From assembly GCA_947629625.1 (NCBI GenBank), contig CANRES010000001.1, positions 6,511 through 70,510 on the forward strand: DNA of 64,000 bases, written 5' to 3'. Below, in pieces: positions 46,516-48,475 of this stretch (positions are counted from its first letter, which is position 1; every line of letters begins with the position of its first letter). The notes under the pieces are model-generated. The model ran no database searches. It saw only the letters and a program-made list of their open reading frames with translations, and was not told the DNA's origin. A program made the position numbers and the translations under genes. This DNA comes from an uncultured Clostridia bacterium. Lineage in GTDB: Bacteria; Bacillota; Clostridia; TANB77; CAG-508.

Positions 46516-46610
46516 TTTTTTAACTCCTCCTTAAAATTTTTATTTTTGCTTTGTTTTTATATGTTTAATTACTAAACATTAGAAAATTAATTAAAAATAT
46601 AATTATAAAA

Positions 46611-46707
46611 CTAAATTTAAAACACAAAAAGAGCCAAATTTATTTATATGCGTAATGGTATTACTAACATATAAACAAAGTTGACTCTGTTTATTTTTTC
46701 TATTAAA
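46611..46707. repeat. Direct repeat R1, a ~95-nt hairpin/terminator-like element
   Basis: About 85-88% identical to R2 (48360..48453). Nested stems (agagccaa / ttgactct, and tttatatg / catataaa) are followed by a T-run. It is also terminator-like in the minus sense. Confidence 0.6.
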
Positions 46708-46757
46708 TTTAATTTTAAACTTAAAAATGACGCAATTATCCTATCTACTAAACATAT

Positions 46758-46780
46758 TGTGTGTGTGTGTGTGTGTGTGT
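46758..46780. repeat. (TG)11 T dinucleotide microsatellite
   Basis: tgtgtgtgtgtgtgtgtgtgtgt is a perfect tract in an otherwise AT-rich intergenic region. Confidence 0.95.
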
Positions 46781-46966
46781 AGAGTACCAACGGTTTCAAG
46801 ACTTGCTATCATTTCTATTTCTCCCTTCTTTTGTTTATTTTCTTTTTACTTTCTTTATTTTATAAAAACTTTATTAAGTTGTCAATACTATTTTTAAATT
46901 TTTACATATAAAATTACATTAATATTTCAATTATTTATCATTTTCATTACAATTTGAAAACATTTA

Positions 46967-46995
46967 TTGACTATAACAATAAATTAGCATAAAAT
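46967..46995 (+). promoter_or_regulatory. Putative sigma-A promoter P1 of the cassette
   Basis: TTGACT, a 17-nt spacer, then TAAAAT. Confidence 0.4.
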
Positions 46996-47027
46996 ACAAT
47001 TATCATAGTATTTTTTATTATATAGTA

Positions 47028-47056
47028 TTGACAATTACAAACAAAAGTTTTATAAT
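47028..47056 (+). promoter_or_regulatory. Consensus sigma-A promoter P2 of the cassette
   Basis: TTGACA (47028..47033), a 17-nt spacer, then TATAAT (47051..47056). The ribosome-binding site GGAGG is at 47066 and the ATG at 47076. Confidence 0.55.
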
Positions 47057-47075
47057 AGTTCTATGGAGGTACTAT

Positions 47076-47552
47076 ATGAGTCAACAAAATAATGTAGAAA
47101 TAAATACAAATGATAATTATAAACTTACAACTGACGAAGCAATAAAATTAATAAATGCCTTAAAAGAAAAAGTAAATAACTCTAATTTAATATTCCCAAC
47201 ATTAGGTAAAAAAATAGAATTTGATGTTTTTGTTAAAGATGACGGTTCAAAATGTGTAGTTAATATTTATAGAGGTTCTATAAATAAAGAAAAAGGAACA
47301 TTTCAAGGAAGAACTTTCATAAATAGTATTCCATTAATAAGATTAGACATTACTAATTCTTGTCATATCAACTCTGATGGAACAAAAATAATAGGAAACC
47401 ATCTTCATATCTATAACGAAGAAACCGAATTGCAAGAAGCAATTCCATTTGATATTAATCGTAAAGATTTATATGAATATTGTTTAGAATTTTTTAAAAA
47501 ATTCAATTTAATAAAAGAAAAATGGAATATAATATATCAAGAAGAAATATAA
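47076..47552 (+). CDS. Hypothetical protein A of 158 aa, first gene of the repeat-bounded cassette
   Basis: GGAGG ribosome-binding site 5 nt before the ATG (MSQQNNVEIN). Soluble, with no motif I can assign. The 47028 start in the ORF track is a TTG lying inside the promoter. Confidence 0.55.
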   Translation: MSQQNNVEINTNDNYKLTTDEAIKLINALKEKVNNSNLIFPTLGKKIEFDVFVKDDGSKCVVNIYRGSINKEKGTFQGRTFINSIPLIRLDITNSCHINSDGTKIIGNHLHIYNEETELQEAIPFDINRKDLYEYCLEFFKKFNLIKEKWNIIYQEEI

Positions 47553-47570
47553 AAAGAAAGGAATTAAAAA

Positions 47571-48344
47571 ATGAATGTAAAATTAAATCCTGTTGAATTA
47601 AAAGAAAAATATATTAGTTGGTTAGAAGATGAAATTTCTGTAAATAAAATTGGAGAATATATAGAAGTTACTAGTCCTTTTTTAGATAGATATAATGATT
47701 ATTTACAAGTTTATGCTAAAATTCAAAATGATAATGAAATTATAATTACTGATGATTCATATACAATAAATAATTTAAAAATGGCTGGAATTGATTTAAG
47801 TAGTTCAAAAAGAAAACAATTATTAAATTCTTTTATAACAAAATATAGAATTAATTTAAAAGATGATGAATTAACTATAAAAACAGATATTGAAGATTTT
47901 CCACGTAAAATTTTATTTTTAATGCAAGCAATGTTACATATTGACGATATGTTTATGCTTTCACAAAATAGAATTGCTTCAATATTTTTAGACGATGTTA
48001 CTAAATTTTTAGATGAAAAAGAAATTTTTTATAGTAAAGATGTTAATTTTATTGGGAAATCTGGTTTTTTATATTCTTATGAATATCTAATTCAAAGAAG
48101 TAAAAATCAACCTGAAAGACTATGTAAAGTAATAAATACTCCGAATAAACAAAATTTTCAAAATACTATATTCATGTGGAATGACACAAAAGAAACAAGA
48201 AATAATGATAGTAAATTAATTGTTTTTTTAAATGATGAAAACAAAATTGATTCCAGTGTTTTAGATGGATTTAAAAATTACAATGTAGATACTATTCCTT
48301 GGTCTAAAAAGAATGAATATATAAAATTATTAAAAGCCTCATAA
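47571..48344 (+). CDS. Hypothetical protein B of 257 aa, second gene of the cassette
   Basis: The 18-nt gap after gene A contains AAGGAA. Soluble protein; possibly a DUF1828/DUF1829-like architecture, though I cannot verify this. Confidence 0.55.
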   Translation: MNVKLNPVELKEKYISWLEDEISVNKIGEYIEVTSPFLDRYNDYLQVYAKIQNDNEIIITDDSYTINNLKMAGIDLSSSKRKQLLNSFITKYRINLKDDELTIKTDIEDFPRKILFLMQAMLHIDDMFMLSQNRIASIFLDDVTKFLDEKEIFYSKDVNFIGKSGFLYSYEYLIQRSKNQPERLCKVINTPNKQNFQNTIFMWNDTKETRNNDSKLIVFLNDENKIDSSVLDGFKNYNVDTIPWSKKNEYIKLLKAS

Positions 48345-48359
48345 AACCTATTAATTGAA

Positions 48360-48453
48360 CTAAATTTAAAACACAAAAAGAGTCAATTTGCTTATACGCA
48401 TCGGTATTAATAACATATAAACAAAGTTGACTCTGATTATTTTTTCATTTAAA
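48360..48453. repeat. Direct repeat R2, which also serves as the terminator of the cassette
   Basis: A diverged copy of R1. Stems agagtcaa / ttgactct are followed by T6. Confidence 0.6.
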
Positions 48454-48475
48454 AAATTTTTATTAATATGTATAT

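Follow-up and report, generated by a model that had tools for sequence, protein, structure and literature searches.

What does a compact two-gene cassette do when it lies between two long hairpin repeats in a rabbit-gut Clostridia genome, and are these repeats its ends? The question is raised by a stretch of 64,000 nucleotides (contig CANRES010000001.1, positions 6,511 to 70,510; hereafter the window) from an uncultured bacterium whose relatives include Candidatus Merdicola and Clostridium sp. CAG:343, in which the genes A and B are flanked by the diverged direct repeats R1 and R2. A preliminary description, made from the sequence alone, had proposed an accessory module bounded by the repeats, for example a defence, toxin-antitoxin (TA)-like or surface-modulating system, and had not placed it in a described family. 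The answer that we favour, with moderate confidence, is that A-B is an intact, expressed and horizontally acquired copy of the candidate defence system PDC-M24, likeliest anti-phage and of the abortive-infection or TA type, and that R1 and R2 represent a separate, duplicated terminator.

Family assignment and promoter of the A-B pair

Gene A (47076..47552, plus strand) encodes a small, acidic and beta-rich protein of 158 aa, and gene B (47571..48344, plus strand) encodes a protein of 257 aa that is also acidic (pI 5.3-5.7 for the two). Both open reading frames (ORFs) were confirmed on the same strand with a spacing of 18 nt, and the tight operon described previously therefore stands. As to families, Pfam and PADLOC profile searches gave clear assignments to proteins that had been left unplaced. 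The A protein matched Pfam DUF6978 (PF22398; E 1.7e-29, 103.2 bits versus a cutoff of 29.6) and PADLOC PDC-M24A (PDLC04536, E 2.1e-34 over residues 15-158; PDLC04538, E 7e-26). The B protein carries DUF1828 in its N-terminal part (E 2.4e-24, 85.9 bits versus a cutoff of 22, residues 35-124) and DUF1829 in its C-terminal part (E 3.5e-30, 104.7 bits versus a cutoff of 22.2, residues 162-247), both over the gathering threshold and in this N-to-C order, and it matched PADLOC PDC-M24B from residue 9 to residue 255 (PDLC04539, E 9.6e-91). B also corresponds to phrog_5059, and PHROG families exist for both proteins; NCBIfam holds no model for A or B, and profile searches of the PDB with alignments of the two proteins gave no match at E <= 1.

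The PDC systems are 145 'phage defence candidates' that were added to PADLOC and had been selected as genes embedded in BREX, DISARM and type I restriction-modification (RM) loci, being candidates by their own authors' account (Payne et al. 2024; bioRxiv 10.1101/2024.01.29.577857). The literature searched contained no mention of PDC-M24 and no function for DUF6978 or DUF1828. On the strength of these profile matches, the A-B pair is a copy of the already catalogued PDC-M24 candidate family. Both genes are under purifying selection (dN/dS 0.12-0.26; 0.15-0.26 for A), and the cassette has a GC content of about 21%, versus 25-30% in the flanking core genes.

A survey of DUF6978 by profile search among 1.84 billion representatives recovered 724 clusters, nearly all of them proteins of about 150 aa that stand alone, and revealed no informative fusions; a Pfam scan of 68 members revealed no second family consistently associated with DUF6978. 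Protein P0012 (381 aa, on a 10-kb ENA contig) was considered as a natural A-B fusion; its A part is cut near residue 125 and joined near residue 5 of B, which is probably an internal deletion or a pseudogene, and it was not used as evidence.

The pair is preceded by a TTGACA-17-TATAAT promoter (47028..47056, plus strand) that matches the sigma-70 consensus at 12/12 positions. The GGAGG ribosome-binding site of gene A (47065..47069, plus strand), read from the sequence and kept in position in L082, L086 and L087, begins 8 nt past the -10 hexamer, and the ATG lies at 47076, so that the leader is very short. Identical hexamers, the spacer core ACAAACA.A.GTTTT and the position of GGAGG were found in 10 homologous loci, and a related promoter element is kept in the L096 cassette, whose B protein is 68% identical. 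The conserved spacer, ACAAACAAAAGTTT, may be an operator, although this is speculative. Of the two tandem, very strong promoters reported previously, only this one held. The upstream site (TTGACT-17-TAAAAT, 46967-46995, plus strand) matches at 10/12 positions and is not conserved in the homologous cassettes; 31 promoter-like sites were found, versus 23 +/- 4 in shuffled sequences of this AT-rich DNA, and since such matches are common in AT-rich DNA the 10/12 site is not separable from background.

Extent and distribution of the mobile unit

Whether the cassette is an accessory element was examined through its close homologues. Among those with B proteins 68-89% identical, A was always directly upstream of B, and the pair occurred in five unrelated chromosomal settings. 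In three of them its neighbours are ftsY and DUF5305 genes, a BcrAD/BadFG gene and a GGDEF-EAL gene, respectively; in a fourth it lies ahead of an rlmN-PP2C-PASTA kinase operon with a ToxN toxin gene next to it and, in some strains, a diversity-generating retroelement; and in the fifth it is found between brkB and rpsI. In L096-L100, which represent another Clostridia lineage, the region upstream of A-B (about 200-7300) varies by strain: the ToxN-family toxin gene neighbours the cassette, and in some strains a bAvd and reverse transcriptase retroelement separates the two.

DNA homology between these loci and the window starts at about 46974-47019 and stops at 48333-48364, near the B stop codon. 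In the nine cassette loci compared at the DNA level (L082-L090), R and flanking direct repeats are absent, and behind B each has an unrelated terminator of its own. Because the homology ends near the B stop and the other loci have no flanking repeats, R is not the boundary of the mobile unit, and the earlier view of the repeats as cassette bounds gives way to limits lying near the B stop and about 100 nt upstream of A. As delimited by these alignments, the mobile and conserved unit is only about 1.37 kb long (46974-48344) and comprises a strong, putatively constitutive sigma-A promoter together with A and B.

The position of the cassette in the window points in the same direction. L002 (CANQOW010000004), the closest genome, aligns collinearly with the window, at 90-96% nucleotide identity (92-96% in the flanks of the island; blastn), and its positions 10217-10239 correspond to window positions 49296-44706. 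In L002 about 15 nt separate the dapL stop codon from the terminator AAAGTTGGCATTTATGCCAACTTTTT, and the hisS promoter comes next, whereas in the window the same terminator follows a gene for a GLUG-repeat protein instead of dapL. Therefore, 44706-49296 is an insertion/deletion difference between strains, a strain-variable island of 4.6 kb that separates the dapL stop codon from the ancestral dapL terminator/hisS promoter and contains ORF263, R2, B, A, a small segment termed X, R1 and the GLUG gene. L002 has no A, B, ORF263, GLUG gene or R copy at this site. Conservation of A and B at this position across relatives had been named beforehand as part of what would overturn the cassette interpretation; neither gene was present in any of 80 dapL loci of related species (L002 and 79 others). 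Together with the other contexts found elsewhere and the PDC-M24 match, this absence upholds the earlier idea of an accessory module of defence or TA-like kind, and the cassette, as judged from these comparisons, is accessory and horizontally acquired.

More distant homologues of B, at 26-36% identity, are carried by plasmids, among them an IncP plasmid, and by temperate phages and satellites of Lactobacillus, Staphylococcus and Streptococcus. The gene upstream of B encodes DUF6978 in prophage Lj965, phage 37, pRSB223 and an Aerococcus replicon, and the pair is kept at about 30% identity on the mobile elements Lj965, phage 37, the IncP plasmid and the Aerococcus replicon. The prophage copies lie in the lysogeny module, between repressor and integrase: in Lactobacillus prophage Lj965 a superinfection-exclusion gene lies two genes away from the pair and the integrase gene farther on, and in Staphylococcus phage 37 it directly adjoins the integrase gene.

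These locations in temperate phages and a satellite, the existence of PHROG families for both proteins, and a predicted restriction-endonuclease-like fold of B that is also used by the repair nucleases NucS and Bax1 could indicate that A-B serves mobile-element biology or DNA metabolism, as an accessory of lysogeny, superinfection or repair/recombination, the chromosomal copies being remnants of decayed prophages. We regard this as distinctly unlikely, given that each Clostridia copy is a lone 1.4-kb cassette set among housekeeping genes, away from any other phage genes, and that these copies are intact and under purifying selection. Moreover, the slot between repressor and integrase of prophages usually holds lysogen-expressed genes that benefit the host, typically defence genes.

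The same spread across prophages, plasmids and scattered chromosomal sites would also be expected of a selfish TA module, in which a toxin and its neutraliser persist by post-segregational killing with no role in phage defence. The tight operon, the strong promoter and the conserved spacer as a possible operator are compatible with such a module, as is the DUF1829 protein of the defence system DS-6/HipAD, which is proposed to be an antitoxin-like partner. Nevertheless, no toxin or antitoxin family beyond PDC-M24 itself and no DNA-binding antitoxin domain were recognised in Pfam, NCBIfam and PADLOC for A, B or the 68 DUF6978 members, and the acidity of both proteins adds to this. A purely selfish module thus appears unlikely, though it keeps an appreciable probability, and it overlaps the anti-phage reading in that many TA modules act in defence.

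Nature of the repeats and of the neighbouring features

The diverged direct repeats with long hairpins and T-runs reported previously are real. R1 (46606..46710, minus strand), the diverged second copy, follows segment X and has the GLUG gene downstream, and R2 (48355..48458, minus strand) comes directly after the B stop codon and 18 nt past the ORF263 stop. The two align over about 114 nt (46594-46712 versus 48343-48460) with 87-88% identity, a 3-nt indel and identical runs of 23-25 nt (blastn E 2e-18), and they are the only R copies in the window. An independent contig from another sample reproduced the ORF263-R2-B junction at 100% identity; hence, the junction is not an assembly artefact.

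What had gone unseen is a marked asymmetry between the strands. Folded as RNA, the minus strand of R1 reached -28.4 kcal/mol (z -6.6) and that of R2 -27.6 kcal/mol (z -6.5), versus -13.7 kcal/mol (z -1.8) and -14.3 kcal/mol (z -2.3), respectively, for the plus strands. On the minus strand the hairpins comprise about 40 pairs; 5 of these in R1 and 6 in R2 are G.U pairs, at which the plus strand has C.A mismatches instead. T-runs flank both hairpins, and on the minus strand UUUUUGUGUUUU directly follows each of them; the plus-strand form of R2 is an 11-bp stem with a T-run just past the B stop codon. Since a DNA palindrome, as at the ends of a miniature inverted-repeat transposable element (MITE) or in a recombination site, would lack this asymmetry, the pattern suggests an RNA element transcribed from the minus strand. 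From structure and position, we infer that R is a duplicated, long and AU-rich intrinsic terminator acting as minus-strand RNA. R2 would end the minus-strand dapF-dapL-ORF263 operon, and its weaker plus-strand form probably also ends the A-B transcript, whereas R1 would end the short minus-strand unit of segment X and insulate the downstream GLUG gene.

Could the stretch from R1 to R2 nevertheless be a mobile or excisable element, with the hairpins as recombination sites of an integron attC-like or MITE-like type or as deletion substrates? Direct repeats of about 114 nt, each a long imperfect palindrome, do bracket a clearly accessory cassette, and their identical runs of 23-25 nt might permit rare homologous deletion. 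However, R is missing from the nine homologous loci mentioned above, the palindrome is kept only as minus-strand RNA through its G.U pairs and not as DNA, no recombinase or integrase gene is present in the island or its immediate flanks, and the two copies differ by 12%, so they are not a recent target duplication. Further R copies, for which the preliminary description had proposed a search, did not appear in the window, in 128 loci (>1 Mb, blastn-short), in the metagenome collection or in IMG/VR. Exact scans with 21-mers (metagenome collection and IMG/VR) gave no match, and the 20-mer scan (metagenome collection) gave 21 matches to the A-rich seed only, with no extension into the hairpin. 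Likewise, an empty site with a single R had been predicted, and none was found: L002 is without the whole 4.6-kb island and without R, and exact look-ups of B and of the GLUG protein gave nothing, while those of ORF263 and A returned only same-strain contigs of <=1.4 kb. A mobile R1-to-R2 element is thus already largely refuted and highly improbable, and we conclude that R1 and R2 are not mobile-element ends but probably two diverged copies of a local terminator. No Rfam family matches R, segment X or the cassette.

Segment X (46712-46974), between R1 and the conserved cassette, has the layout of a small minus-strand unit: promoter, ribosome-binding site, ORF, microsatellite and then the R1 hairpin. 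Its promoter-like site (TTGACA-17-TAAAAT, 46857..46885, minus strand) matches the consensus at 11/12 positions and is divergent from the cassette. The ORF of 23 codons (MIASLETVGTLHTHTHTHNMFSR; 46741..46812, minus strand), with a GGGAG ribosome-binding site, reads through the microsatellite already noted next to the cassette, a (TG)11.5 tract at 46758..46780 (Tandem Repeats Finder: 11.5 copies, 100% matches). On the minus strand the tract is (CA)11.5, and a gain or loss of repeats would alter the frame in which the ORF is read. Segment X has no homologue in any of the loci compared; its origin as a remnant of the divergent gene beside the L082 cassette was considered and rejected, there being no similarity.

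The earlier placement of the unit between a surface-protein gene and the dapF-dapL operon needs a correction, since R2 is separated from dapL by ORF263 (48476..49267, minus strand; 263 aa), with which the operon ends in this strain. ORF263 has no family match, and the search for its homologues returned only relatives at <=39% identity. The GLUG-repeat protein (44749..46515, minus strand; Pfam Glug, E 9e-11), a member of the island outside the cassette, starts with the pilin-like hydrophobic segment KERGITLIALVITIIVLLILAGV. In three relatives more distant than L002 (L043, L076 and L038), GLUG-like fragments closely follow dapL, so that a gene of this kind recurs at this site even though L002 lacks it. 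The ribosome-binding site context of ORF263, TAGGAGTGTAACATG (49258-49272, minus strand), and the start context of hisS, AAAGGAGTGTAATAAAAAATG (44571-44588, minus strand), share the 9-mer GGAGTGTAA, which may be a trace of the joining of the island or a coincidence. A second strain-variable spot lies between ksgA and dapF (window 51533-52477 versus L002 6986-7978); the window has there ORF264 (51630-52424, plus strand), with no Pfam or PADLOC match, and L002 an unrelated 274-aa DUF3800 protein on the opposite strand. Elsewhere in the window, an inverted repeat with 70-nt arms (37526-37595 and 37687-37756; 77% complementary, 91 nt apart) is also present in L002, where blastn aligns both orientations.

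Proposed function and comparison with known systems

Taking the PDC-M24 match and the distribution of the pair together, we infer that anti-phage defence is the most likely function of A-B. Structure prediction offers a mechanism for it. The model of B (pLDDT 85.8) consists of an N-terminal domain predicted to resemble type III secretion system (T3SS) chaperones, with an order of one alpha helix, four beta strands, two alpha helices and two beta strands that fits this fold, and a C-terminal domain with a predicted restriction-endonuclease-like alpha/beta core of the PD-(D/E)xK fold. A Foldseek search with B returned VC1899 (E 4e-5), followed by Can2, Bax1 and R2 endonuclease, and also arenavirus cap-snatching nucleases. 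The conserved core of A reads, in consensus wording, RLD...H97-x-N99-(S/P)-D-G-x-K-I-x-G-x-H109-L-H111-I-Y-x-E115; among 68 members, which share about 30% identity, K30 and H109 never vary and H97, N99 and H111 hardly do. The HxH(x)3E spacing presumably resembles a cupin-type metal site.

According to these models, the chaperone-like domain of B would bind a protein or peptide, and the restriction-fold domain would cut or bind DNA, which would make B a sensor-effector or a DNA-binding partner. A would be its obligate partner, either a regulator or antitoxin or else a second metal-dependent enzyme relying on the cluster H97, N99, H109, H111 and E115. Either A or B could be the effector, given that the precedent of HipAD would allow the DUF1829 protein to be the non-toxic partner. 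Together, R1 and R2 might insulate the inserted cassette, which has the opposite orientation, from the genes next to it. A bolder version, which we consider rather unlikely, holds that PDC-M24 is an anti-phage system of new mechanism, in which the chaperone domain of B captures a phage protein and frees the nuclease, with the His-rich DUF6978 protein as a metal-dependent co-effector or antitoxin, and in which the terminator pair and the microsatellite mini-gene form a local layer of insulation or phase variation for the cassette or for the surface-protein neighbour.

Several observations weigh against the favoured anti-phage reading or its parts. Experimental phage protection by PDC-M24 was not found in the literature searched, and there are no neighbouring defence genes in the window, ORF263, the GLUG protein and ORF264 having no PADLOC match. 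Among 10 diverse B homologues, the only invariant positions noted in the DUF1829 half are G162 and D205; D142 and D222 come close to this, and position 171 is mostly D/E, but E182 and K186 vary across distant homologues and the DUF1829 domain has no invariant lysine; as a consequence, nuclease activity of B is uncertain. The model of A is poor (AF2 pLDDT 59.8), with generic fold matches. As for R, a consensus terminator scan flagged neither copy, and the stems, which contain only 5 G-C pairs, are AU-rich and of unusual length. Finally, HipAD is the sole validated system in which DUF1829 occurs, and there it belongs to the non-toxic partner of a kinase (PMC13092281).

The anti-phage reading nevertheless gives the locus a practical value. 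It is a clean natural example of PDC-M24, a minimal and self-contained cassette of 1.4 kb with a defined promoter that is easy to clone and test, and its boundaries are well set by comparison with the five other insertion contexts. The predicted combination of a chaperone-like and a restriction-endonuclease-like domain in B provides a first testable mechanistic hypothesis for the family, and the His cluster of A provides residues to mutate. For annotation, the lesson is that flanking hairpin repeats may be a locally duplicated terminator and not the signature of a mobile element.

Compared with known systems, the C-terminal domain of B brings to mind type II restriction endonucleases of the CCGG family and others (PspGI, NgoMIV, Cfr10I, EcoRII and BstEII). 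It differs from them in that B has no adjacent methyltransferase, no assignable D...(D/E)xK or SxK...E motif and no invariant lysine. Can2/Card1 and VC1899 (DUF1887) are likewise combinations of a sensor domain with a PD-(D/E)xK nuclease, acting as effectors in type III CRISPR signalling. The N-terminal domain of B, in contrast, is secretion-chaperone-like and not CARF, full-length TM-scores are about 0.37-0.39, there is no sequence similarity to B (about 9% identity), and no cyclic-oligonucleotide synthase lies near A-B. DS-6/HipAD is a validated two-gene defence system with a HipA-like kinase as effector (DefensePredictor, Science 2026, PMC13092281). Its second protein, DS-6B, contains DUF1829 as B does, whereas it has a kinase as partner, DUF3037 in place of DUF1828 and no DUF6978.

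Closer are the pairs Ljo_0292/Ljo_0291 of Lj965 and ORF031/ORF014 of phage 37, which combine DUF6978 with DUF1828/DUF1829 in the same order, the two genes overlapping or lying <=12 nt apart, and with B proteins 32-34% identical; these are borne by temperate phages, whereas no phage genes surround the copy in the window. The closest likeness is to PADLOC PDC-M24, number 24 of the multi-gene phage defence candidates and a family itself predicted by 'guilt by embedding'. The window copy stands alone in a housekeeping region, outside RM, BREX and DISARM loci, but nothing structural sets it apart: both components of the system were matched by their HMMs over nearly their full length, with order, strand and tight spacing alike.

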